DNA from: an uncultured Gammaproteobacteria bacterium
GTDB lineage: Bacteria; Patescibacteriota; Microgenomatia; Levybacterales; GWA1-39-11
Direction: 5' to 3'
Length of the DNA: 64,000 nt
Assembly: GCA_964651815.1 (NCBI GenBank)
Contig: CAZYWG010000001.1
Location: 1,189 to 65,188, forward strand
The notes beneath the pieces are model-generated. The model was not told where the DNA came from. It ran no database searches and saw only the letters and a list, made by a program, of their open reading frames with translations. Every line of letters starts with the position of its first letter. The stretch's first letter is position 1. Positions 51,670 to 64,000 of this stretch are shown in pieces. The position numbers and the translations under genes are program-made.

Positions 51670-51670
51670 A

Positions 51671-51711
51671 ATTACTTTTCAAGTAATTATGCATCAGGCA
51701 TGAAATGCCTG
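51671..51711 (-). promoter_or_regulatory. Two adjacent hairpins abutting the nusA start codon (candidate autoregulatory leader structure)
   Basis: ATTACTT-ttc-AAGTAAT (51671-51687) and CAGGCAT-gaa-ATGCCTG (51695-51711). The first ends 1 nt from the ATG and occupies the usual SD position. Confidence 0.35.
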
Positions 51712-51895
51712 AGCATCTACTACTTTTACTTTTTTGTTAAATAAGTTTAGAAATTTATTACTCTTCACACACAAAGTGTGTGGGCAACCTCTAAACCTCG
51801 TTACTATTATCAATCTAAAAGTTTGTTTACACCAGACACTAAGTGACTGGGCATTCTATAACTTTTATTACTTTTTTAATATAACTTGTTGAGAT

Positions 51896-51922
51896 AAAAA
51901 AAGGTGGTTCTTCCGACCACCT
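51896..51922 (-). terminator. Rho-independent terminator on the minus strand (AGGTGGT-tcttccg-ACCACCT followed by T7)
   Basis: 7-bp GC-rich stem with a 7-nt loop, followed on the minus strand by TTTTTTT. No annotated minus-strand CDS lies upstream of it within 450 nt. Confidence 0.5.
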
Positions 51923-52145
51923 CCAACAAATCAACCTAGCCCTATTTTAGCGAAAAAATGCCCATTAGTCAAGGAAACGAATCAGGATTAACGAGAGAAT
52001 AATGCTTTCACAATGTTTACAAAATTCTTATAACATCTTAAATAATTCACTGTAAAGTAAACTGGGTTTGCTAACATTTTATATACTTTGTCTTATTGAC
52101 ACAGCATATTTGAATGCTTTAATCTATTAAGAATCAAACAGCTAT

Positions 52146-52222
52146 TGCCCTACGCTGCTTGTCCTTATCCCAGTCTTGGGAAAGGAGCAACCCTACGCAA
52201 CTCAAACTGCGAAGGGGATAAG
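52146..52222 (+). promoter_or_regulatory. Structured non-coding element in the long leader of the first repeat-protein gene (possible riboswitch or attenuator)
   Basis: CTTATCCC (52164-52171) pairs with GGGATAAG (52215-52222) enclosing inner stems. CCCTACGC is duplicated. A candidate TTGACA -35 lies at 52096-52101. Confidence 0.25.
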
Positions 52223-52373
52223 TTTTCTTAATTGTTGATTATCAATTCCTGCCTATGGAAACTGTATTTTTTGCGCCTAAAAATAAATATAATTTTTTCT
52301 CCACGAATTATTCCCAGTTTTTCAATTTGAGATCCGATCGAAACTTTTTAATGGTTCGGATGTAGGGAAGGAG

Positions 52374-52970
52374 GTGAAAATAATGATAAAAAAATTAGCA
52401 ATAACAGCAGCTGCTGCAGGCATAATGCTAGTATCTGCTCTTCCAGCATTTGCTTCAACAAGCGTTACCATTTCTGGTAATGGCGCCTTATCCCACAACG
52501 GAGTAGGTGTTTTCAGTTTAAGCTCTTCGAAAGTAAAGCAAACTAACAACACTTTTGTAGGCACATTTGTCTCGTCCTCTACAAATACAGGGGGGAACCA
52601 TTCCAGTTTTAATACTGGCGGAAGTAACTCAATTACAACCGGAGGGTCAACAACAGGAGTAAGCGTTGGTGTTGAGGGAGGAACAAATACTAATTCAGGA
52701 ACTCCATGCGGTTGCCAAACGGGCGGCAGCACAGACGTTACCATTTCTGGTAATGGAGCGCTTTCTAGTAATGGTGTTTTAGTTGTCAGCAGTAATTCAA
52801 ATACTGTGAAACAAAGTAACAATACTGTTGTCGTAACTGGTGTTGAAACAGAAACCAACACAGGAGGCAATTCCACAAGCTTTAATACAGGTGGAAGTAG
52901 CTCTATCACAACGGGTGATTCATCAACCGCTGTAGAAGTCACGGTAACTGGTTCGTCAAATTCTAACTAA
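52374..52970 (+). CDS. Secreted tandem-repeat protein (2 repeat units), ISGNG/NTGGN repeat family
   Basis: Strong SD GGAGGTG. Signal peptide ending AFA|ST. Two ~90-aa units each begin VTISGNGALS.NGV and contain NTGGN..SFNTGGS.SITTGG/DS, separated by a CGC motif. Confidence 0.7.
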   Translation: MKIMIKKLAITAAAAGIMLVSALPAFASTSVTISGNGALSHNGVGVFSLSSSKVKQTNNTFVGTFVSSSTNTGGNHSSFNTGGSNSITTGGSTTGVSVGVEGGTNTNSGTPCGCQTGGSTDVTISGNGALSSNGVLVVSSNSNTVKQSNNTVVVTGVETETNTGGNSTSFNTGGSSSITTGDSSTAVEVTVTGSSNSN

Positions 52971-53090
52971 TCACAAGATTAGTCAGAATAGAATAGGGCG
53001 CAGAGAGCCCTTAGAAGTGAGAGAAAACCTCTTTTCGAGAAATCGGAAGAGGTTTTTTCTTGTTTACCCTGAGTGTGTTTTGAGGCTAAA

Positions 53091-53765
53091 TTACTTGACT
53101 GGATCGGCAAATACAAGGAGGCGGAACCAGTCTGTTCCTACAGGTGTACACGTCTGCAAGATAAGCTGCGTACGCGTCTCCTTTGTTAAATACTGAATAT
53201 CCGAGGGTAAAACGGTCCTAAGCTCACGTACCTTATATATATAATCGCGGTTTTCCCGAGTTACGATTATCTTGTCCCCTGGTTTTAGTTCATCAAGCCT
53301 GAAAAAAATCACATTATAACGGGTGATTCTCCACGGAAAGTCTGATGAATGGGCAAAAATATACATAGTCCCGCTTTGCGCAGGATATGACGTACCTTTT
53401 GCTTGGGCAACGCCGTGTGTTAATGCTTCGTGATAAGTAGACGAATTAAACGGATCAACACCCCAAATAATAGGTGCTGCGACATTAATTTTTGGGATTG
53501 TAATTCTGTTTGGGCTATGAACAGCGGGCATAACGGGAAAAAATAACAGAATTAGTGGATAGTAAATATAAAAAAGAAGAAATGCTGCCAAAATCATGAT
53601 AGAGCTCCCTATCTGCTGGCGACGATTCTTTCCGAATATCAATTGAACAATGCGGCTTGAAATTAATAAAAGCCCTTTTTGGCTTTTTGTTTTTTTTTTG
53701 GATTTTCTTTTTATTCTTTTTACTTTTTTGGGGGATTTTGTTTTTTTCTTAGGCATGGAATTCAT
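53091..53765 (-). CDS. Sortase (transpeptidase), Lys-rich N-terminus
   Basis: TM helix, ITIPKINVAAPII, YIFAHSS, and the catalytic LILQTCTP (TLxTC). Immediately downstream of the LPETG-bearing protein. Confidence 0.8.
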   Translation of the reverse strand: MNSMPKKKTKSPKKVKRIKRKSKKKTKSQKGLLLISSRIVQLIFGKNRRQQIGSSIMILAAFLLFYIYYPLILLFFPVMPAVHSPNRITIPKINVAAPIIWGVDPFNSSTYHEALTHGVAQAKGTSYPAQSGTMYIFAHSSDFPWRITRYNVIFFRLDELKPGDKIIVTRENRDYIYKVRELRTVLPSDIQYLTKETRTQLILQTCTPVGTDWFRLLVFADPVK

Positions 53766-53786
53766 TATACGCTTGTTAGGAGGGAA

Positions 53787-54968
53787 TTATTTACGCGAAC
53801 GAGGAGGCGAAACGTCCGTTGAGAAACGCAAATACCATCCAGATAGGAAAATTGAAAACAAAAATAATGTTGCTAAAAACATCCAGGCGGAGCCAGTCTC
53901 TGGCAAAATTGATCCGGTGGACGCTGCAAGTACTTGACCGCCGGAACTTCCACCTGAACCTCCTCCGGACCCACCACCAGAATTGCTTGAACCTCCTCCA
54001 CCCGATGACGGTGGATTATTGGTAGGATTGCAATTATCGGTGCATGGGGGTGGAGGTGGAGGCGTTTGGGGGCAATCAATGGTAAAAGAATTATCATTTC
54101 CGGCATTATTAACGTTTACTACGCTAGCAATACTACCCGTTGAGATTGAAACATTTCCATTATTGTTGTTTGCCGTATTATTTCCGGTATTTAATGCAAC
54201 CCAAATCACGTTATTGAGGTTGAAACGATTATCTACAGAATAATTAAGGGTATTAGTAAAATTGTAGGCAATAATATTGTTTGATCCTGTGCCGTTCCCT
54301 GAAATGTTAAAAATTGGATCTAAATTAAGTCCAAATCCCGACGCCGTATTTTTATTTATATTTTGGTTTGAGACATTGACAAGAGACGAGATATTTCCCG
54401 TAAGTATAAATACATTTCCGTTGTTGTTATTTGCCGTATTATTTCCAGTATTGGCAGCAGTTGTAATTGAATTTGTGATATTTGCCGTGTTGTTTTGGGT
54501 AACATTTGCAGCAAGATTTTCATTTACGATAGCTGTATTGGTAGATCCAGCACCGTTATCCGTAATATTTACTGTTGTTGAACTTTGTGATTGAGCACAA
54601 TTACAATTTCCCGTTGCGCTGTTTGAATTTATATTATTGTTGGTTACATTAGTTGTTGTGGAGACATCTCCTGTTTGAATTGCAGTCGACCCCGCTTGTG
54701 AAGGATCCGTTGATGGCGAACCGGTGTTATTATTTGCCGTATTGTTGCCTGTATCCGAATTAGTTTTTACGTCATTTTGAACATTTGCAGTATTATTTTG
54801 AGTAACAGTTGTGGTATTTGTTGACGTGACACTTGCTGTATTCTGCGAACCATCACCGTTGCCTGTAACTGTCACCTCAACCGTATCAGCCACAACTACA
54901 CCTGCGGCTCGCAAAAAGGATAGCAATATTAATGGCAGGATAAAAAGCGAAACAATTATTTTCTTCAT
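53787..54968 (-). CDS. Cell-wall-anchored (LPETG) Asn/Thr-rich tandem-repeat surface protein, same repeat family
   Basis: Signal peptide. Repeats contain CNC and TIDC motifs, then a Pro7 and Gly/Ser linker. The C-terminal sorting signal is LPETG + hydrophobic helix + RSRK. Confidence 0.8.
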   Translation of the reverse strand: MKKIIVSLFILPLILLSFLRAAGVVVADTVEVTVTGNGDGSQNTASVTSTNTTTVTQNNTANVQNDVKTNSDTGNNTANNNTGSPSTDPSQAGSTAIQTGDVSTTTNVTNNNINSNSATGNCNCAQSQSSTTVNITDNGAGSTNTAIVNENLAANVTQNNTANITNSITTAANTGNNTANNNNGNVFILTGNISSLVNVSNQNINKNTASGFGLNLDPIFNISGNGTGSNNIIAYNFTNTLNYSVDNRFNLNNVIWVALNTGNNTANNNNGNVSISTGSIASVVNVNNAGNDNSFTIDCPQTPPPPPPCTDNCNPTNNPPSSGGGGSSNSGGGSGGGSGGSSGGQVLAASTGSILPETGSAWMFLATLFLFSIFLSGWYLRFSTDVSPPRSRK

Positions 54969-55045
54969 TATTACTTAATAATATATAAACCCAGAGTGAT
55001 GTAAAGCGTTAAGAAGTTTGTAAGAAACGGGTTTTGAATGGCCGC

Positions 55046-57337
55046 TTACAAGAGCAGGTGTACCCCTTTAACAACTACACCCCGCAAGTACGTCAACTTC
55101 TTTTTAAGAATTATGACGCTTACTATTGGAATGGCGATAAATAGAATCCACGCAAGATTGAAGGTCAACATGTGAGCAGCGCTTTTTACGCTTGTATTAA
55201 CAAGGCCGCTATTAGAATTTCCGGTGATTCCTGCAAAAAGACCTCCGGTTGTACCACCTGTTGCGCTTGTTCCGAGGACATTTCCCCCAAAGAAGACTGT
55301 TGAAGATGAACCTCCGGAATTTGTTGTCACTGTTCCGGCTCCGGCAGATACTGTACCTCCAGAATTCGACGTGTTAGACCCGTTTGAATTATTGTTTGAA
55401 TTATTTCCGCCGCCTCCACCATTTTGCGGATTTTGGGCCGTTTTTGCAGGATCATTTGGGTCAGACATGCCTGGTGTTACAAAATTTCCAAGCCAGCTTC
55501 CAAATACATTGACAACTGTCACAACCAATTTTCCGCCGCCTGTTATATTGTTATTTACAAAGTTAACAAGATTTGCAATTACGTTTGCATTACCAGTTGT
55601 AATATTTGAATCTCCGCCAGTGTTGTAGTTGGAATTATTTCCGCCCGTGTTGGCTGACAAATTAATATTATTTTGGATATTTGCGTTGTTTGACTGTGTT
55701 GTAGTGTTATTGTTTGTTGTAGAACTATTTGCCGTGTTGTTTGACCCAGCACCGTTGTTTGAATTTCCGTCGATTGCAGTGACTGCACCCGTTACTGGAT
55801 CCACTTCAAATTCTGTTCCGGCAGAACCCGCCATAGTTGCTCCATCCGGCGCGCCCATTATTTTTCCAATCCAATGCCCTGCTTCATTGACAATAACAAG
55901 CCACCATGTGCCACCGTCAACATTATTGTTGGCTACATTCAAAACATTTGCATCAACACTTGACGAACCTGTAGTGACGGTTGAATCGCCATTTGTATTA
56001 AAGTTTGCATCATTTCCACCCGTAGCTGCGTTGAATGTGAGATTATTGTCAATATTTGCATTGTTTGTCTGTCCGGTTGTGTTGTTATTTGTTGTAGAAC
56101 TGTTTGCTGTGTTGTTTGACCCTGCGCCGTTGCCGGAATTGGCCGTTGTTGAAGTGGAGCTGCAGCCGCAAAGAAGTGCGTCTATTGTTGATTGTGGCAA
56201 AATAATATCCCCTACCAAATTTCCGAAAATATTAACCACATTGTAAAGTACGTTGCCTGAAATATTGTTGTTGGCAAAAGTCAAAACGTTTGCATCTACA
56301 TTTGCGTTTCCTGTTGTGATATTGGAGTCTCCGCCCGTATTAAATTGCGTTGCATTATTTCCGGAATTAGCCGATAAATCAAGGCTGCTTCCAATACCCG
56401 CATTATTTGACTGCGAAGTATTGTTATTATTTGTAGTCGAACTATCCGCGGTATTTGTGGAATTTGCACCGTTGCCGGAATTACCAACTATATTTTGTGC
56501 TCCGCATCCATTTGTACAAGAGCTTGTTGCATTCCCGGGCGCCAAAATTATGTCCCCTGTTTGGTTAGTATCTACATTGAATGTTGCAACAGCCACACCG
56601 TCAACATTATTGTTAACTGCCGTGATCACGGTCCCTGAAGTATTTGCGTCACCTGTAGTTATTGACGAATTGCCAGTGTTCATTGAAGCGGTATTTGTAC
56701 CCGTTACAGTTGCCGTAGTGAGATTGTTTGCCACATTTGCGCTGTTTCCTTGAGATGTAGTTGCCGAATTTTGGTCAGTTGAACTTGCAGAGTTATTAGA
56801 ATTAGAACCATTACCGGAATTAAGGGTTGCCGAATTTCCGCTGCATGTAGAACACGAACCACCACCTGTTGCCAAATTATTGTTACCTGTTGTTGCGAGT
56901 GTTGAATTGTTTGTTGCACCACCTGTTGTAATATTTGTATCCCCAACATTTCCGCTTGCATTAGTCCCGCCTCCGGTTTGTGTCTGTGTGTCAGCTTGCG
57001 CGTTAAAGTTAGGAGAAGTCGGTGCTGTTGGCGCGGTTGGAGCCGTTGGCATAGTTGGTGGTGTTGGTAGGTCTGGTGCTGCAGGTGGCGCAGGTGGAGT
57101 TGGCGCGCTTGGCGCGGTTGGCATAGTTGGTGCGGTTGGTGGTGCCGGAGGCGCTGGCGCTGTTGGCATAGTTGGTGCGGTTGGTGGTGCCGGAGGCGCT
57201 GGAGCACTTGGTGCAGTGGGCGCGTCCGGTGCACTAGGTCCATCATCTGCTAAAGCTGCTACTGGCAAAGAAAGCCGGCCAAGTAGTAACACTATGATTA
57301 GCGCGATTGATAGTATTTTTTTAATTTTGTTTGTCAT
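55046..57337 (-). CDS. Large (763 aa) surface repeat protein: signal peptide, Pro/Ala/Thr-rich N-terminal linker, at least 4 long repeat units of the same family, C-terminal TM anchor
   Basis: Repeats read NSGNGAGSNNTANSSTTNNN...NTGGDSNITTGNANV...CGC. The C-terminus is hydrophobic helix + KKK. Many + strand ORFs in this interval are low-complexity artefacts. Confidence 0.75.
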   Translation of the reverse strand: MTNKIKKILSIALIIVLLLGRLSLPVAALADDGPSAPDAPTAPSAPAPPAPPTAPTMPTAPAPPAPPTAPTMPTAPSAPTPPAPPAAPDLPTPPTMPTAPTAPTAPTSPNFNAQADTQTQTGGGTNASGNVGDTNITTGGATNNSTLATTGNNNLATGGGSCSTCSGNSATLNSGNGSNSNNSASSTDQNSATTSQGNSANVANNLTTATVTGTNTASMNTGNSSITTGDANTSGTVITAVNNNVDGVAVATFNVDTNQTGDIILAPGNATSSCTNGCGAQNIVGNSGNGANSTNTADSSTTNNNNTSQSNNAGIGSSLDLSANSGNNATQFNTGGDSNITTGNANVDANVLTFANNNISGNVLYNVVNIFGNLVGDIILPQSTIDALLCGCSSTSTTANSGNGAGSNNTANSSTTNNNTTGQTNNANIDNNLTFNAATGGNDANFNTNGDSTVTTGSSSVDANVLNVANNNVDGGTWWLVIVNEAGHWIGKIMGAPDGATMAGSAGTEFEVDPVTGAVTAIDGNSNNGAGSNNTANSSTTNNNTTTQSNNANIQNNINLSANTGGNNSNYNTGGDSNITTGNANVIANLVNFVNNNITGGGKLVVTVVNVFGSWLGNFVTPGMSDPNDPAKTAQNPQNGGGGGNNSNNNSNGSNTSNSGGTVSAGAGTVTTNSGGSSSTVFFGGNVLGTSATGGTTGGLFAGITGNSNSGLVNTSVKSAAHMLTFNLAWILFIAIPIVSVIILKKKLTYLRGVVVKGVHLLL

Positions 57338-57436
57338 TTTATTTTTTACGAACTATTTTTTAATCGAACTCTTATTAATTTCTATATTTTCTATTTACTA
57401 ATAACTATTTACTGTTTCTATGTTGTTCGGAAACTT

Positions 57437-57477
57437 GTAGGGTGTTTTTGTCGAAGTGCTAACAAAAAGCACCCTAC
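57437..57477 (-). promoter_or_regulatory. Strong intercistronic hairpin 17 nt after the stop of the first repeat-protein gene (possible attenuator or processing site)
   Basis: GTAGGGTG-TTTTTG ... CAAAAA-g-CACCCTAC gives a ~14-bp stem with a 12-nt loop. No adjacent U-tract. Confidence 0.35.
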
Positions 57478-57493
57478 CAAGTAATCCTTAAAG

Positions 57494-58753
57494 CTAGATT
57501 GACAATCCAAAGAAAGACAATAAAGCTTGAATGTCGAAAGAAAGGCTAACACTTGATCCTCCGGGAAGTGGAAGTACAAATGGTGTTCCTCCAACAGTGT
57601 TGACGTTGCCGCTGTTATTAACATCGGTTGAGTTAGTGGAATCGCCAGTTATGATAGCTGGGTCGTTTCCATTTTCTACAGATCCAGTGTTAAGGTTTGC
57701 GTCATTGTAACCAGTCTTTGCATTTGAGTAGACATCGTTGTCGAGGTCTGCTGCATTTGCTTGTCCGATTTCATTGGCGTTAGCAAGAACTAGGTCAATA
57801 CCGTTTTGGGTAAGACCGTTTTCTCCATAAGAAGAAGCTCCGTTTCCGTCAATTTTTGCAAGAACGTCAAATGTGCATCCACAGTCAACGCTGGCACTAT
57901 TAAAGTTAACCATGTTGTCTACGTTTGCACCTGCTTTCGCATCGCCGGTTGAGATTACTACATCTCCTCCGGTGTTGAATTTAGCATCGTTGCCTCCGGT
58001 TTTTGCATCTGAGTTAACATCGTTGTCGATGTTAGCTGAGTTTGCCTGCTCAACGCTTGAAGAATTTGCTAAGACTGCGCTAATCCAGTTATCGCTGCCA
58101 GCTCCATTTCCAAGAATTTTGAAGGATGCACCAGATCCTGAAGCTCCTGCTCCGCCTCCGATCATTGCAGAATTTGAATTCGCAACGGTCTTAACGTTTG
58201 CATTTGCTGTAGCATCTCCGGTTACAACTACCACGTCTCCTCCGGTGTTAAGATTTGCATCGTTACCTCCGGTTTTGGCGTCTGACTTGATGTTATTGCT
58301 AACATCAGCACTGTTTGCTTGTTCAACAGTGTTTGAATTTTCATTTGTAAGAGTTACAAGATTTTCGGATTTTGCTCCGTTTCCTGAAATTAATACATTT
58401 GTGTCAGATCCACAATTACATCCAGCGACCGTAGCAGCATTGCTGTTAAGGACATTGGTTACGTTTGTGGTGGTTTTTGCATCACCAGTTTTAACGGTTA
58501 CGTCTCCACCGGTGTTGTAATTTGCGTCATTGCCACCTGTATTTGCGTTAGTGGTAATGTTATTGTTTACATTTGCTGTATTACTCTGTGAAACGGTGGT
58601 TGAATTTGACTGTACTGCTTGCACAGCATTATTTGAACCAGATCCATTTCCAGAAATTTGAATAGTAGTATCAGCGAAAGCTGGAGTTGCCATAGAAAGA
58701 ACTACTGCACCTGCTGCTATTACTGAAACTACTTTTTTTTGAAATTTTGTCAT
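57494..58753 (-). CDS. Secreted tandem-repeat protein (4 repeat units), ISGNG/NTGGN family. Putative major subunit of the locus.
   Basis: Strong SD (AGGAGGTGATT). Signal peptide AFA|DT. Four ~90-aa units: IQISGNGSGSNN / VLISGNGAKSEN / FKILGNGAGSDN / IDGNGASS, each with TGGNDAN.NTGGDV...TGDA and ending in CNCG / GGG / CGCT. Confidence 0.8.
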   Translation of the reverse strand: MTKFQKKVVSVIAAGAVVLSMATPAFADTTIQISGNGSGSNNAVQAVQSNSTTVSQSNTANVNNNITTNANTGGNDANYNTGGDVTVKTGDAKTTTNVTNVLNSNAATVAGCNCGSDTNVLISGNGAKSENLVTLTNENSNTVEQANSADVSNNIKSDAKTGGNDANLNTGGDVVVVTGDATANANVKTVANSNSAMIGGGAGASGSGASFKILGNGAGSDNWISAVLANSSSVEQANSANIDNDVNSDAKTGGNDAKFNTGGDVVISTGDAKAGANVDNMVNFNSASVDCGCTFDVLAKIDGNGASSYGENGLTQNGIDLVLANANEIGQANAADLDNDVYSNAKTGYNDANLNTGSVENGNDPAIITGDSTNSTDVNNSGNVNTVGGTPFVLPLPGGSSVSLSFDIQALLSFFGLSI

Positions 58754-58782
58754 TTAATAATCACCTCCTTTTCGACCAAGAT

Positions 58783-58799
58783 TTCCGATAATATCGGAA
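58783..58799. promoter_or_regulatory. Perfect palindrome TTCCGATA-A-TATCGGAA abutting the SD of the repeat-protein operon (candidate operator)
   Basis: Same CCGAT..ATCGG core as the sites at 2460-2477 and 42741-42759. Confidence 0.35.
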
Positions 58800-59087
58800 C
58801 ACTTCTTTATCCCGTCCCTCGTTAGAGAGAAGCCGGAACCTGCCGTTTCTTTTTTGACAAAAAAAACGGAGACTCCTCGACACAATCACCTAAGATTATG
58901 TAGAGAAGCCTCCGTTTGCGGTCAGCTCCGAATACTTATTTTATACTTTTAACTGTTCAATTTGTCAATAGCCATTTTGGCTTTTTTACAATTTTATTAC
59001 AAATATTTGTTCAATTACTTCGTGTCGCCCTAATCCCTCAATCTATCAACTTCAATTGAACCTTAATTCCTAATTCGCGATTCAAAT

Positions 59088-59333
59088 TTATTCCGTTCTC
59101 CTGAATTGCGTATGAATACTAAAAACTTTTTGGTCGGATGTTTTTTCTTCAACACCAGTCTGCGTTTCGTGTGTTATATTTATTGAGGTTTTTTTGATGT
59201 TGCGGACAGTTATTTGAGTAACTGTTTTATCCTGAACGTAAATTTCAATACTCCCAAAATCAACTGAGTCGAGTGCGCTTTCAATCTCTTCTATGAGATC
59301 TTTTTTTTGTTTGGTCTTGACAAAGCTCGACAT
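59088..59333 (-). CDS. DUF2292/YezD-like small protein
   Basis: FGSIEIYVQDKTVTQITVRNIKK matches the YezD family core. Confidence 0.45.
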   Translation of the reverse strand: MSSFVKTKQKKDLIEEIESALDSVDFGSIEIYVQDKTVTQITVRNIKKTSINITHETQTGVEEKTSDQKVFSIHTQFRRTE

Positions 59334-59384: not shown

Positions 59385-59951
59385 CTATTTGAATGATACG
59401 GGAATTATTGTTTTTTTACCTGCTATTTCTCCTACTTGAAGCTTTAAATCTTTGTCTGTTTCATTTACTGCAATCCCAATGCGCGTTGGAGTTGTAGAAA
59501 TAGCTTGTGCTTCAACCGGATCGCTGTGGATATCAGCGGCAAACCAATTTTTTGTATCATTGTTTACAGAAATTCTCACATAATCTCGGCTGTTAATCTG
59601 CAAACCCTGGTTAAGGCTGTTTATTATTTTAATGTTTACAATTAAAAATACTCTACCCGTAACTGCTGACGCCGGTTGGCCTTTGACAACAATGTGGTGA
59701 CGCAGTTCAGCCGATTGAATAATATATGTAAAATCACCCGTTTTTGCACCTTTACTATCTTTCAGCGGGAAGGTAAAGTTTCTATTGATTTCTGTTGTCT
59801 TTACATCATTATTATTTGTGGTTGTGTTTGCTCCGGCAACGGACGCGTTATCCTTTTTCCCAAATACTGCAAAAATTCCCAAGACAACAATTACAAAAAT
59901 GGCTATTGGAATAACTAATCGCAAAATATTTTTCTTGTTAATGTTTGGCAT
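59385..59951 (-). CDS. Membrane-anchored hypothetical protein (DUF4352-like beta-sandwich). The track ORF extends to 60119.
   Basis: The internal Met MPNINKKNILRLVIPIAIFVIVVLG gives a proper signal anchor. The upstream 56 codons are probably non-coding leader. Confidence 0.5.
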   Translation of the reverse strand: MPNINKKNILRLVIPIAIFVIVVLGIFAVFGKKDNASVAGANTTTNNNDVKTTEINRNFTFPLKDSKGAKTGDFTYIIQSAELRHHIVVKGQPASAVTGRVFLIVNIKIINSLNQGLQINSRDYVRISVNNDTKNWFAADIHSDPVEAQAISTTPTRIGIAVNETDKDLKLQVGEIAGKKTIIPVSFK

Positions 59952-60124
59952 TTTAATGCTTGGCGCAAATTTACTTCCGGCAATTCGTGCTTCGCGACTT
60001 GTCCCTACGAATGAGAATAAAAATCCTTTTAATTTTTGGGCGTTTTCTTCAAGAACGTCAGCAACTGCGTTGATGGTTGGAAGGTATGCAAATGTTGATG
60101 CTTTTCTAGGTGATGCCATATTTC

Positions 60125-61213: not shown

Positions 61214-61804
61214 ATGAATAAGAAAATATTTTTTAGCGCGATTTCAGTTGTAGCAGCCCTAGCTCTTATGGGCGGCGCAACCTTCGCATTCTTTTCAAGC
61301 AGCGCAACTAGCACAGGAAATATATTTGCCAGCGGTACGCTTGCTCTTAAGCTTGATGATACTGATGAAACTACACCAGCTGCAACTGTTACAGCTTCTA
61401 TTGGTGCTAGTAATTTAGCTCCAGGTGGTACGGTATCCGGTTTCATTTCGATGCATAATGACGGATCAATAGCAATCCAACATGTCGATTTAAGCGGAAC
61501 AGAAACCGCTACAAGTGTTCCTGATCTTGCAACAAAATTGCAATTCACTTCGGTCAAACTGGGTGATGACAACACTTGCTCAACCGGTACATCAGATATA
61601 ACTGCATCACTTATAGCAGCGATCGGTGGAAATACATTAGATAAATTAAATTTGACTGAGTATGATCTACCTGGTCTTGCAGTAAGTGCTACCAAGTATG
61701 TGTGCATGACTTTAACATTTGACCCGCTTGCTGATAATACATTTCAAGGTAAATCAATTACCGAGAAGTTTACGTTTGTTGGCGATCAAGACGCGAGTCA
61801 ATAA
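61214..61804 (+). CDS. tasA: TasA/camelysin-like (peptidase M73 family) secreted protein with a SipW-cognate signal peptide
   Basis: Strong SD GGAGGTG. N-terminus ALALMGGATFAFFSSSATSTGNIFASGTLAL matches B. subtilis TasA GGGTWAAFND...ATFASGTLDL. SNLAPGG..F..MHNDGSIAIQHV matches TasA SNLKPGD..F..NNGSLAIKEV. Confidence 0.8.
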   Translation: MNKKIFFSAISVVAALALMGGATFAFFSSSATSTGNIFASGTLALKLDDTDETTPAATVTASIGASNLAPGGTVSGFISMHNDGSIAIQHVDLSGTETATSVPDLATKLQFTSVKLGDDNTCSTGTSDITASLIAAIGGNTLDKLNLTEYDLPGLAVSATKYVCMTLTFDPLADNTFQGKSITEKFTFVGDQDASQ

Positions 61805-61858
61805 TTTTTTGTTGGTGGCAGGGTTCTGCAGAGCTCTGCTACCAACTCAGGATATGTC

Positions 61859-61944
61859 ATCCCCAACTTGATTGGGGATCTAGACACCGTCCTCGGACTT
61901 GATCCGAGGAACCAGAATAAAATAGAATCCGGATCAAGTCCGGA
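61859..61944 (+). promoter_or_regulatory. Three consecutive hairpins with conserved pentaloops (CTTGA, CTTGA, TCAAG) between tasA and sipW. The last abuts the sipW ATG.
   Basis: ATCCCCAA-CTTGA-TTGGGGAT (61859-61879), CCTCGGA-CTTGA-TCCGAGG (61891-61909), TCCGGA-TCAAG-TCCGGA (61928-61944). Plus GTTGGTGGCAG...CTGCTACCAAC at 61811-61846. Confidence 0.35.
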
Positions 61945-62544
61945 ATGACAAAAAAAAATAAAATGAAAATATTAAAAACATTTACAAAAGGCCTTTTTAC
62001 AATTGCAGTTTTAATTATTCTGCCAATTGTACTATTCACATTCATAACTGCTAAAACCAACTTTTTTGGGATTCAATCTTTTGTTGTCCTTTCCGGATCA
62101 ATGCAGCCAACTCTTCCCGTAGGTAGCGTAATTTATACACAACATAGGACCCTTTATCAAAAAGGCGATATCATTGCTTTCAAACGCGGTGATGTAAATG
62201 TAACCCACAGAATTATAAAAATTAATGAAGACGGAACTTTTGTGACGCAGGGAGACGCCAATAATGCTGCAGACAATAAGACTGTAGCGAGTAGCGACAT
62301 TTTGGGTCGCGAGACTTTCTTTCTTCCGTATGTAGGCCGCGCAATTGTTTTTCTAAAAACGCCAATTGGATTTTTTGGCAGTGTTGTTTTCCCTATTACT
62401 GTTTTTATCATTCTTGAACTATGGAACCTTAAGCGGGAAATAGAAAAAGAAGTTGAGCGGAAATTACAAAAGAAAATGGAAACAGCACATAACCTGTCAT
62501 TGCGAGGTCCCCAAGGGACCGAAGCAATCTCAATCGAATTATGA
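61945..62544 (+). CDS. sipW: Signal peptidase I, SipW/archaeal-eukaryotic type (S26B)
   Basis: N-terminal TM helix, VVLSGSMQPTLPVGSVIY (catalytic Ser), GDIIAF, VTHRII (His), FVTQGDAN..D and a C-terminal TM helix. This matches SipW-type peptidases, not LepB-type. Confidence 0.8.
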   Translation: MTKKNKMKILKTFTKGLFTIAVLIILPIVLFTFITAKTNFFGIQSFVVLSGSMQPTLPVGSVIYTQHRTLYQKGDIIAFKRGDVNVTHRIIKINEDGTFVTQGDANNAADNKTVASSDILGRETFFLPYVGRAIVFLKTPIGFFGSVVFPITVFIILELWNLKREIEKEVERKLQKKMETAHNLSLRGPQGTEAISIEL

Positions 62545-63242
62545 ACAAACTTAAATTTATTTCTTTAGGAATTATTTGCACATTTTTAATTGCATTTTTG
62601 TCTTACAAAACAACTTTCGCGTTGTTTTCAAGCAATGCACATTCCACCAACAACGTCTTCTCAGCAGCCCAAGCCTTCCCAACAGCAACTCCATCTGCAA
62701 CCCCAACACCTTCTCCAACACCCACTCCCCAAATCGCCCAAACTTTGGTCATAAACGAAGTACTACCGGTTTCAAGCTGCGTAGATGGACAAAAAGACAC
62801 AAATTGGATAGAAGTTTATAATGGAACAGGTGGCGATGTAAATTTGAAGAATTTCAAACTTAGCGATGGATCTAATATTACCGACTTGGTTACTTCAAAC
62901 ACCACGCTACCCTCACATCAGATTGCTTTAATTGCAAAAGACGGAAGTATATTTAATAAAGGTACAGATAAAGGAAACAAATGTTGGCCCGATAACAATG
63001 CAATAACTGTTAACCTCGGTAACAATGCCCCTGTAAATTTTGCATCTGGTATATTAAGACTTCTCGCCTCTGACGGGACTACCGTTATTGACCGGGTTGA
63101 ATTTGGAACAGCTCCTTTAAATCCTGCAACTAATCAATCTATCGAAAGAAAACCGGTTGGGCACGATTCTATAACGGGAGACTTTTTTGTAGCTAGCGAC
63201 TTTATTTTACAAACTAGCCCAACACCAGGGCTTGGATTATGA
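62541..63242 (+). CDS. Secreted lamin-tail-domain (LTD) protein with SipW-cognate signal peptide and Pro/Thr linker
   Basis: N-terminus KTTFALFSSNAHSTNNVFSAA (SipW-cognate class), linker PTATPSATPTPSPTPTP, and the LTD core LVINEVLP...WIEVYNGTGGDVNLKNFKL. Overlaps sipW by 4 nt. Confidence 0.7.
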   Translation: MNKLKFISLGIICTFLIAFLSYKTTFALFSSNAHSTNNVFSAAQAFPTATPSATPTPSPTPTPQIAQTLVINEVLPVSSCVDGQKDTNWIEVYNGTGGDVNLKNFKLSDGSNITDLVTSNTTLPSHQIALIAKDGSIFNKGTDKGNKCWPDNNAITVNLGNNAPVNFASGILRLLASDGTTVIDRVEFGTAPLNPATNQSIERKPVGHDSITGDFFVASDFILQTSPTPGLGL

Positions 63243-64000
63243 AAAGATTATTTAGAATTATATTAGCATTAGTAATAATAGGAGTAATGGTTAAATTTGT
63301 TGCGCCGGACCTTTTTAAACCATCAACCGTCCGGGCATTTGGTGACTTGGTTGTCAATTTCCATGTCCCTTTGAATAACCCCATTTTCACTGTTACCAAT
63401 ATGGCGCCCGGGGATCCGCCGCAAAACCGTAACGTTGATGTCCACAATAATGCCTCCGTTTCAAGGCTCGTATCGGTAAAGGGAGTAAGGACAGGTGGGG
63501 TTGGAGCAGACCCAAAACTCGAGACAGTTCTTGATCTGGTAATAAAAGACGGCGCAACCCCAGTCTACGGGACAGGCAGCCTTACAGGCCCTAAATCTGT
63601 CAAAAACTTTTTTGATGACAGCACTGCAACAGATGGTGTAAAACTCAACATAATTAATCCTGGAGGCGATAAAACATATAATTTTAAAGTCACTTTTCCC
63701 TCATCTGCCGGAAATGATTTTCAGGCAAAGTCGGTTATTTTTGACCTGACTTTTGGTGAAGTTACGGGAAATAATGTGGTTATAAATGAAGTTTACTATC
63801 TTGTTGACCCAAGCAAAGGTCTTGATAGTCCCAAAGACCGCGGGATACTTTCTGTCAATGGAAATAATGTAACAATTGTAATTTCCGGAAACGGCGCTTG
63901 GTCAAAAAATAAAGTTGTCGTAACCCAACTCCAAGCATGTAAACTCCTCCAGACAAATAATACAAATGTTGTGACAAACGTAACATCAAATACAAATACC
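63239..64000 (+). CDS. Secreted protein, partial (continues off the right edge). LTD-like INEVYY motif and an ISGNG motif shared with the 52-59 kb repeat family.
   Basis: ATG at 63239 overlaps the upstream stop (ATGA). N-terminal TM/signal, VVINEVYYLVDP, NVTIVISGNGAWSKNKVVV. Not in the ORF track because it has no stop inside the window. Confidence 0.6.
   Translation, partial: MKRLFRIILALVIIGVMVKFVAPDLFKPSTVRAFGDLVVNFHVPLNNPIFTVTNMAPGDPPQNRNVDVHNNASVSRLVSVKGVRTGGVGADPKLETVLDLVIKDGATPVYGTGSLTGPKSVKNFFDDSTATDGVKLNIINPGGDKTYNFKVTFPSSAGNDFQAKSVIFDLTFGEVTGNNVVINEVYYLVDPSKGLDSPKDRGILSVNGNNVTIVISGNGAWSKNKVVVTQLQACKLLQTNNTNVVTNVTSNTNT

Follow-up and report, generated by a model that had tools for sequence, protein, structure and literature searches.

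The window, that is, the whole 64-kb stretch of DNA analyzed here, belongs to a bacterium of the Microgenomates group, which bears out its earlier assignment to a CPR-type organism. It harbors four genes for secreted repeat proteins, termed A to D, and all four ORFs were found where a preliminary description of the sequence had placed them (Table 1). The ORF of gene D at 52374-52970 on the forward strand stands, with the correction that its start is probably ATG 52383 and not GTG 52374, because of the spacing to the Shine-Dalgarno site. The previously proposed order, an A-B-C-sortase operon with a divergent paralog, was recovered in ~80 species-level Microgenomates genomes as Mem244 - DUF2292 - A - B - C - sortase - divergent D, spread over many candidate phyla of the group. 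The conserved cluster is larger than first described, since it reaches 60119 and takes in a 244-aa membrane protein (Mem244) and an 81-aa DUF2292 protein. An orthologue of Mem244 occupies this place in 79 of the ~80 loci, and Mem244 gave no significant match in Pfam, NCBIfam or PDB; the DUF2292 gene is kept upstream of A in ~75 loci, at a median gap of 7 nt from Mem244. The sortase gene adjoins C in ~60 loci and is convergent with the divergently placed D, whose position and orientation are conserved in at least 38 loci. Sortases are near-ubiquitous in the Microgenomates, in which many hypothetical membrane and surface families are enriched (PMC6744442).

Table 1. Genes and sequence elements of the cluster and of its neighborhood, in window coordinates.
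Feature	Position	Strand	Basis
Gene D: ~195-aa secreted protein, 2 units, CGC between, no anchor	52383..52970	+	ORF, HMM
Sortase: Lys-rich N-terminus, TM helix, catalytic domain	53091..53765	-	Pfam Sortase 3.3e-24
Gene C: 393 aa, signal peptide, 3 units, Pro/Gly/Ser stalk, LPETG tail	53787..54968	-	ORF, HMM
Gene B: 763 aa, signal peptide, 4 units and N-terminal fragment	55046..57337	-	ORF, HMM
Conserved RNA hairpin directly 3' of A stop codon	57428..57485	-	covariation
Gene A: 419-aa secreted protein, signal peptide, 4 units, no anchor	57494..58753	-	ORF, HMM
Promoter-like site and conserved 5' leader of A	58754..58968	-	sequence elements
A Shine-Dalgarno AAGGAGGTGA	58770-58761	-	
A leader hairpin	58799-58783	-	
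A leader GAAGUG	58805-58800	-	
A leader long stem, then U8	58917-58859	-	
A leader box GCTGACCGCAAACGGAGGC	58926-58908	-	
A promoter-like -10 TATAAA	58945-58940	-	
A promoter-like -35 TTGACA	58968-58963	-	
DUF2292 (YezD-like) protein, 81 aa, second gene of cluster	59088..59333	-	Pfam DUF2292 5.3e-8
Mem244: 244-aa single-pass membrane protein, first gene of cluster	59385..60119	-	ORF
Gene E, cut by window end	63239..64000	+	ORF, Pfam LTD 1.2e-13

A, B, C, and D are paralogous and share one Asn/Thr/Gly-rich unit of 85-90 aa; the residue makeup given in the preliminary description holds, and the length of ~90-110 aa claimed there does not. A 90-position HMM run over the window finds units in all four proteins, bearing out their description as paralogous secreted tandem-repeat proteins, and confirms the copy numbers reported before (2 in D, 4 in A, ~4 in B, 3 in C), those of B being four units and, in addition, an N-terminal fragment. 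Besides these, its only match in the 64 kb was the beginning of a unit in the ORF at 63239 (gene E). The 13 aligned window units share the invariant residues N8, G9, S12, N14, N30, G45, N47, N52, T61, G62, and N77. Comparison of the unit with Pfam, NCBIfam and PDB sequences gave no match, in line with the earlier view that the repeat lies outside known families; by these searches, it is an undescribed repeat family, absent from every curated library searched. The unit numbers are fixed at 4/4/3/2 (A/B/C/D) in ~80 loci, besides one variant locus with 5 units. Amino-acid identities of 49-64% for A and 45-63% for B, compared with 51-55% for the translation factor IF2, indicate that both are under purifying selection, with a constraint at about the level of IF2.

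Structure prediction, previously suggested as a check on the unit, points to a beta-solenoid-like fold class. The predicted architecture appears two-sheet and solenoid-like, and may have rungs of ~22 residues, ~four per unit, and the predicted fold of the four-unit proteins is confident and intramolecular; Foldseek matches to the predicted unit structure were non-significant. The first ~30 residues of every B unit are predicted to be disordered, which counts against the explanation preferred below. Cys pairs (CC/CxC) had been said to close each unit. They follow only some of them, namely units 1 and 3 in both A and C, unit 1 in D, and the N-terminal fragment and units 1 and 2 in B. Their conservation, also put forward as a check, was confirmed: the closely spaced pairs are kept across ~80 species, and the cysteines of the orthologues are even-numbered and essentially confined to these pairs, which suggests cross-linking.

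A Sec-type signal peptide is present in each of the four proteins, which between them represent three anchoring modes: LPXTG in C, a C-terminal membrane anchor in B, and no anchor in A and D. The N-terminus of C reads MKKIIVSLFILPLILLSFLRAAGVVVA|DT and its tail LPETG-SAWMFLATLFLFSIFLSGWYL-RFSTDVSPPRSRK, that is, LPETG, a hydrophobic segment and RSRK. C thus has the layout of an LPXTG cell-wall protein (signal peptide, LPXTG, hydrophobic segment, basic tail), and it is the only LPXTG-type protein in the window; the signal recurs in 40 of 49 three-unit C orthologues. The sorting signal reported beside a sortase gene is real, and C is, judged by sequence, a textbook sortase substrate. The sortase carries the signature His (IFAHS), Cys (LQTCTP) and downstream Arg, and scores 59.9 bits against TIGR01076 (cut-off 39.35). 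All class-specific NCBIfam models remained below cut-off, the best being class C (65.8 bits vs a cut-off of 160), and among PDB sequences class C sortases come closest, with values of only 1e-9 to 1e-7.

For B, a C-terminal TM anchor and a Pro/Ala/Thr stalk had been described. The anchor is present as an 'FNLAW' motif ('INLAW' type) followed by a TM helix and a basic tail, a pattern (xNLAW-TM-basic) found in 65 of 71 B orthologues; the Pro/Ala/Thr-rich stretch is N-terminal, straight after the signal peptide. A conserved extension specific to B (..VVNIFGxLxGDIxLP..) comes after every one of its units, and the last of these leads into a G/N/S-rich linker. A ends in a conserved hydrophobic tail (..FFGLSI) and has >729 homologues of nearly constant length. 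LPxTG occurs within the last 70 aa in 0/83 orthologues of A, 0/38 of D, and 1/71 of B.

Very strong Shine-Dalgarno sequences had been ascribed to the operon throughout; among the cluster genes, only A and D have them. In the window, strong sites precede A, D, and the neighboring TasA-like gene, and none precedes B, C, or the sortase gene. Across loci, Shine-Dalgarno cores were found for 54% of A and 71% of D, compared with 0-8% for B, C, sortase, NusA, and IF2. The earlier impression of A as a highly expressed major component is supported by its strong site, making A a candidate abundant building block.

Upstream of A, the leader box is found in 53-60 of 78 loci and GAAGTG in 61 of 78 (vs 10% background); the leader had no match in Rfam. 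The strong hairpin reported between A and B at 57437-57477 proved real (-22 kcal/mol, z -5.7), and a strong hairpin lies 3' of A in 71 of 73 loci. It consists of a covarying stem of 15-20 bp with an invariant loop (..GCACUUC..) and no U-tract. In the stem, 88.9% of cells are paired, compared with 37-48% in slid controls, and both sides vary in 14 of 15 pairs; a covariance model gives one match per locus, always after A. The loop GCACUUC is the complement of GAAGUGC, a conserved element of the A 5' UTR, and compensatory changes are seen between the two. Pairing between 5' and 3' UTRs of bacterial mRNAs is known for S. aureus icaR and B. subtilis hbs. As in these, the A transcript has a conserved 3' element that could pair with a conserved stretch of its 5' UTR, but the putative partner of the loop lies ~40 nt upstream of the Shine-Dalgarno site and is not the site itself. 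The leader box, the covarying 3' hairpin and the 5'-3' complementarity make up a separate candidate for a new cis-regulatory RNA from an uncultured lineage.

Gene E is complete in an identical contig (L001), where it encodes 443 aa: an N-terminal domain, then a Lamin-tail domain split by one inserted ISGNG unit (Pfam LTD on residues 299-397, unit at ~residues 213-296). The presence of this unit agrees with the preliminary description, and the link drawn from it to a TasA/SipW cluster is loose, since that cluster is adjacent in only ~10/80 loci. The gene at 61214-61804 matches Peptidase_M73 (3.8e-15) and TIGR04088; neither a Peptidase_M73/TasA domain nor a SipW-type signal peptide was matched in A-D.

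We consider it somewhat probable that this is a cell-envelope cassette common to the whole lineage of Microgenomates-group CPR, most likely for one multi-component surface structure of beta-solenoid-like paralogues, and we infer that this is a major structure of the cell surface. The cell wall would hold C through a covalent bond made by the sortase, and the membrane would hold B. Abundant free A and D would be held by homotypic association with these anchored paralogues, the like repeat modules of A/D and B/C stacking or packing side by side and the CC/CxC pairs possibly locking the assembly via disulfides; the product would be a surface layer, sheath or short fiber. Pfam and NCBIfam domains of known S-layer anchoring modules (SLH, CWB2 and similar) were absent from A-D, so that anchoring would have to run through C and B. 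A more specific proposal, possible though doubtful, is that the outer surface layer or sheath of Microgenomates CPR cells is made chiefly of A, together with D; it would consist of ~85-aa beta-solenoid modules, tethered by C and B and cross-linked through CC/CxC, and its mRNA would be controlled or stabilized by a lineage-specific loop-linear pairing of 5' and 3' UTRs.

Assembly of A/D on B/C would parallel the logic of S-layers with dedicated anchor proteins and of curli, in which the free major subunit CsgA assembles on the cell-bound paralogous nucleator CsgB. As in curli, an unanchored secreted repeat protein with strong expression signals occurs with cell-associated paralogues of the same repeat, which is Asn/Gly/Ser/Thr-rich; a two-sheet solenoid-like architecture with rungs of ~22 residues, as predicted here, may be a further common trait. 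In contrast to curli, the unit spans 85-90 aa, or ~four rungs, where that of curli is one rung of 22 aa, the envelope is of monoderm type, with sortase and TM anchoring in place of CsgG/E/F, and A-D have conserved Cys pairs. The curlin repeat (Sx5QxGxGNxAx3Q; Pfam Curlin_rpt) had no Pfam match in A-D at E <= 1, and an hhalign comparison of the unit profile with E. coli CsgA gave a probability of 0.2%. The beta-helix/RTX S-layer protein RsaA of Caulobacter differs in its RTX motifs and type I secretion and shows no homology, nor do the disulfide-linked amyloid sheaths of Methanospirillum and Methanothrix; a lattice or hoop of A-D would be hypothetical.

Alternatively, each paralogue might act alone as an adhesin with which an episymbiont binds host or substrate, the cluster being tandem duplicates that share one sortase. 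LPXTG-anchored beta-solenoid adhesins such as the Lactobacillus reuteri SRRP binding region and S. pneumoniae PfbA are single proteins with pectate-lyase-like right-handed beta-helices, whereas the four paralogues of the locus divide over three anchoring modes and lack sequence similarity to them. We regard independent adhesins as unlikely, given that A and D lack an anchor yet are best equipped for high expression and that the conserved Cys pairs suggest cross-linking. Typical adhesins diversify fast, unlike the order, unit numbers and sequences here, and the fixed unit numbers and IF2-like conservation across candidate phyla argue somewhat against a fast-evolving host-specific adhesin, and to that extent against the putative host-attachment role raised in the preliminary description.

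A and D might also be released and polymerize into biofilm fibers, a shed extracellular matrix or functional amyloid in the manner of curli, Fap or TasA that C and B would nucleate. This reading overlaps the envelope structure proposed above, the main difference being whether the product stays on the cell. It appears decidedly improbable in view of the missing sequence relation to curlin repeats, of the fixed four-unit architectures with confident predicted intramolecular folds, which do not resemble a minimal amyloid core, and of a TasA adjacency that is not general.

The preliminary description had favored a sortase-assembled fiber or pilus of Gram-positive type, covalently joined, with A as major pilin, B as tip or anchor, and C as basal subunit. 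Like such pili, the locus clusters a sortase gene with several paralogous surface-protein genes, one of them with LPXTG directly before the sortase gene, and both solved relatives and NCBIfam models place the sortase nearest to class C pilus sortases. However, covalent polymerization by sortase needs a sorting signal on every subunit, and LPXTG is a feature of C only; the locus is therefore not one for a sortase-polymerized pilus, and the proposal fails. The class C model stays below its cut-off, the locus has a single sortase, a regex test for a pilin-motif lysine (YPK-type, YPKN-like), which a divergent motif could escape, found none in A-D, and the predicted fold is solenoid-like instead of CnaA/CnaB Ig-like. 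We consider this pilus largely refuted and very unlikely. Still less credible are Ca2+-binding RTX-like beta-rolls or ice-/mineral-binding solenoids with a physicochemical role, given no Pfam HemolysinCabind match at E <= 1, a unit motif unlike GGxGxDxUx, a cluster beside which no genes for type I secretion were seen, and the non-significant Foldseek matches.

CPR/Patescibacteria account for a large share of bacterial diversity, and their cell surface, the composition of which has to our knowledge hardly been described, is the interface of reduced organisms with hosts or environment. The cluster provides a concrete candidate for a major CPR envelope structure, with a constraint close to that of a translation factor and a domain new to the libraries searched, and offers as handles the LPXTG anchoring of C, the candidate abundant subunit A, and the Cys pairs. 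If true, a layer of A and D would add a new class to the surface layers, and the 5'-3' UTR pairing would be one absent from Rfam.

A 90-position HMM of the ISGNG unit, built on the four units of 56 orthologues of A, was run in six frames over the whole window. The preliminary description had recognized four genes for secreted, Asn/Thr/Gly-rich repeat proteins, here termed A, B, C and D, and all four ORFs were recovered as described (see the table). The unit numbers also agreed with those first counted: four units in A (domain E-values of 1e-22 to 1e-34), four in B together with a weak N-terminal fragment, three in C and two in D. No units were detected in any frame outside A-D and the truncated last ORF of the window, E, which contains the start of one unit. 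Alignment of the 13 window units over 87 columns yielded eleven invariant positions and the consensus xxxxISGNGAGSxNx7NxxTVxQxNxANxxNx5ANTGGNxANxNTGGDxxIxTGDx5NVxNxxNxN. Unit 1 of C resembles unit 1 of A, and otherwise the units of A showed no clear pattern of positional orthology to those of C, B or D. Some details of the first account required correction. Not every unit ends in a Cys pair: such pairs follow the first and third units in both A and C, unit 1 in D, and the N-terminal fragment and first two units in B. The Pro/Ala/Thr-rich stretch of B lies at its N-terminus. The Cys pairs (CC, CxC or CxxxC) are even-numbered, represent essentially the sole cysteines of these proteins, and are kept among orthologues. 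In D, the GTG at 52374 directly abuts the Shine-Dalgarno core (GGAAGGAG followed at once by GTG), whereas the spacing to the ATG at 52383 is normal, so that the ATG is more likely to be the start. The exact B, C and D proteins are missing from a collection of 15 billion proteins although the contig itself is present, which suggests that they were called differently or overlooked by the source annotation.

The suspicion that the repeat lies outside recognized families was upheld by all searches performed. A-D had no match in Pfam and NCBIfam at E <= 1 except noise, neither A nor the unit profile matched any PDB sequence, and hhalign of the unit profile against E. coli CsgA was likewise negative. 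Foldseek found no significant match in the PDB, a scan of viral contigs, for which the alignment of units proved too variable, revealed no relatives, and the repeat family was nowhere described in the literature searched. Ten family members of atypical length, the largest reaching 1183 aa and 10 units, carried no other fused Pfam domain; the sole precomputed Pfam tag, PFF1_TM on one B orthologue, was below cut-off and was rejected as spurious. The 244-aa membrane protein (Mem244) and the 81-aa DUF2292 protein encoded by the first two genes of the cluster likewise had no match in the PDB. The column-profile autocorrelation of 224 units peaked at lags of 17, 22 and 39, which fits about four rungs per unit. 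On this basis the fold class appears to be beta-solenoid-like, as had been suspected, without detectable homology to any solved family.

The family is large. For A, more than 729 homologues were found, almost all 405-430 aa long and every one unnamed or 'hypothetical', and B has more than 441. A search of 1.84 billion proteins with the unit profile gave, at E <= 1e-3, 3114 representatives of clusters at the 50% identity level; most of these have four or five units, with up to 10 in a few. In GTDB contigs, with one genome per species, 107 stretches contained a relative of A, and all informatively named records among them belong to the Microgenomates (Levy-, Gottesman-, Woese-, Ames-, Roizman-, Chisholm- and Daviesbacteria). 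The title 'uncultured Gammaproteobacteria bacterium' is borne by many MAG records (L006-L013, L017, L020, L022-L024 and others; CAZ..., CAY..., OZ246419) that hold a Microgenomates-type locus with the same neighbours and share 67-75% (NusA) and 51-55% (IF2) identity with the window. These labels look implausible and appear to be wrong or placeholders.

The gene order Mem244, DUF2292, A (four units), B (four), C (three, LPxTG), sortase and, on the opposite strand, D (two) is shared by about 80 loci. Unit numbers are essentially fixed among these one-per-species loci, with a five-unit A occurring in one subfamily in an unchanged context. The nusA-infB genes often abut the cluster, as they do in the window, where an unusually long (~700 nt) non-coding stretch with promoter-like and hairpin elements lies between the divergent nusA and D. 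Between pairs of genomes, A is 49-64% and B 45-63% identical, compared to 51-55% for IF2 and 66-75% for NusA; thus, A and B are conserved about as well as IF2 and less than NusA. One sortase family occurs in nearly all Microgenomates, where 35 mostly hypothetical families, many of them predicted membrane proteins, are also enriched (Méheust et al., 2019; PMC6744442). A cluster of TasA-like, SipW and Lamin-tail-domain genes adjoins the A-D cluster in only about 10 loci. The last gene of this cluster in the window, E, had been noted to share the ISGNG motif; completed from the identical contig L001 to 443 aa, it indeed has a single ISGNG unit inserted into its Lamin-tail domain. The equivalent adjoining clusters of L004 and L086 include a HemolysinCabind protein.

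Expression signals are distributed unevenly over the genes. Strong Shine-Dalgarno sites, previously attributed to the whole A-B-C-sortase operon, were found in the window for A (AAGGAGGTGA, 8 nt 5' of the ATG) and D, with none at B, C or the sortase. Among orthologues, Shine-Dalgarno-like cores lie near the start of 54% of A and 71% of D genes, compared to 0-8% for B, C, sortase, Mem244, DUF2292, NusA and IF2. Such sequences are rare in the lineage (window and L002-L085) and concentrated on a few genes for secreted structural proteins, namely A, D and the TasA-like gene.

Gene A is further associated with RNA elements at both ends, none of which was matched by Rfam with the locus in permissive mode and with the whole window. 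Compared with shuffled sequences, the spacer between A and B is far more stably folded in 71/73 loci (median z of -6.4), forming a hairpin that begins a few nt 3' of the A stop codon (median energy of -29 kcal/mol). Since a U-tract follows it in only one of 66 loci, a canonical intrinsic terminator was ruled out. Covariation supports the stem, with 88.9% of cells paired versus 37-48% when the partners were slid, 14 of 15 stem pairs changed on both sides, and a covariation score of 0.53 (controls, 0.09-0.16). A covariance model searched over 1.27 Mb gave exactly one sense-strand match per locus, always 3' of A. In 61/78 loci (background, 10%), the exact complement of the loop, GAAGUG(C), lies in the A 5' UTR some 40 nt before the Shine-Dalgarno site, and perfect loop-UTR complementarity of at least 6 nt was found in 53/77 loci versus 5.5% of shuffled UTRs. 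Compensatory variants in three orthologous loci, L019 (loop AACACUUC, UTR GAAGUGUU), L059 (loop AAGCACUUAG, UTR UAAGUGCU) and L077 (loop GUCACACUUA, UTR UAAGUGU), support a real pairing, and the two elements represent a candidate 5'-3' UTR interaction. Upstream in the A leader, a promoter-like TTGACA-17-TATAAA precedes a conserved box, GCUGACCGCAAACGGAGGC, at the start of a long stem in which GGAGG is paired with CCUCC and which ends in U8. The box precedes A in 53-60 of 78 loci and could act with its stem as an attenuator or 5' stabiliser; a few copies precede other genes, as near the TasA/VWA gene in L004. Taken together with the Shine-Dalgarno sites, these elements give the A mRNA the make-up of a stabilised transcript with very high expression, in agreement with its first description, and B, C and the sortase appear set for low expression.

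Features of the A-D cluster and its surroundings (window positions unless stated)
Feature	Position	Strand	Remark
Non-coding stretch between nusA and D	51670-52382	+	promoter-like and hairpin elements
D	52374-52970	+	two units
Sortase ORF, 224 aa	53091-53765	-	directly 3' of C
C	53787-54968	-	three units
B	55046-57337	-	four units
B C-terminus	55046-55170	-	[IVLFM]NLAW, TM helix, basic tail
Hairpin after A stop codon, 15-20 bp stem	57428-57485	-	covarying; invariant loop GCACUUC; also at the orthologous positions of L002-L085
A	57494-58753	-	four units
A C-terminus	57494-57580	-	hydrophobic tail
5' UTR element GAAGUGC	58800-58806	-	complement of hairpin loop
A leader: promoter-like site, box and stem	58859-58968	-	conserved
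TasA-like (Peptidase_M73) gene, SipW, two Lamin-tail-domain proteins	61214-64000; L001 2916-6272	+ (window)	cluster

The proteins also differ in their anchoring signals. LPxTG followed by a TM segment and a basic tail is present in 40/49 three-unit C orthologues, compared to 0/83 for A, 0/38 for D and 1/71 for B, and C is the only LPxTG-type protein in the window, confirming the sorting signal reported beside a sortase. This enzyme has a Pfam Sortase domain (3.3e-24) with recognizable His, Cys and Arg, but reached no class-specific threshold (best, class C with 65.8 versus a cut-off of 160 bits). C has one unit (~190 aa) in some lineages. At Gottesman-, Ames- and Woesebacteria-type loci (L030, L034, L035, L039, L040, L046, L049, L050, L054, L055, L063, L070 and L082), C is often of this kind or without LPxTG, and ends in (V/I/M)LGL[SA]x[TA][SA][GS], a hydrophobic segment and a basic tail, with the sortase still adjoining; the sortase may recognize this ending as a variant motif. 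In 65/71 B orthologues (L002-L085), [IVLFM]NLAW directly precedes the TM helix and basic tail, which has the layout expected of a putative tripartite C-terminal sorting signal. A ends in a conserved unanchored tail, PFxxPxxPxVxFSFNxAALxAFFGMS, which is too short to span the membrane and has low AlphaFold confidence; possible roles are those of a docking strand and of a sorting signal.

These sequence features, including the one module and conserved Cys pairs common to A-D, point to a single assembly with division of labour, the steps of which we infer as follows. The sortase would tie C to the wall and B would sit in the membrane, with A and D produced in surplus and secreted in unanchored form. 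Free A and D subunits would associate homotypically with the anchored paralogues, in what we judge the most economical mechanism, and disulfides would possibly fix the assembly, the product being a surface layer, a sheath or short fibres. The logic would resemble that of CsgA on CsgB in curli and of S-layers with anchor proteins; a further analogy may be drawn with methanogen sheaths, which have disulfide-linked amyloid hoops (PMC11576556). A shed amyloid matrix would differ little from this anchored assembly. A set of independent adhesins is less probable, being a poorer fit to A and D, which are anchor-less, slowly evolving and, from their signals, apparently highly expressed. RTX-like Ca2+ binding or ice binding has a weak fold resemblance and nothing else in its favour. 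A sortase-polymerised pilus or fibre, the original proposal, fails its defining tests, given the lack of LPxTG in A and D, its single occurrence among B orthologues, and the predicted solenoid-like fold.

Surface beta-solenoids, LPXTG anchoring and systems of major and minor paralogues are already known kinds. What is new is the repeat family itself, absent from all libraries searched, the fixed arrangement of seven genes with three modes of anchoring, the lineage-wide conservation of the cluster in Microgenomates, and the RNA elements tied to gene A. That the A-D cluster encodes the main cell surface layer of the Microgenomates, under a dedicated 5'-3' UTR control element, is a tentative proposal that we consider rather unlikely.
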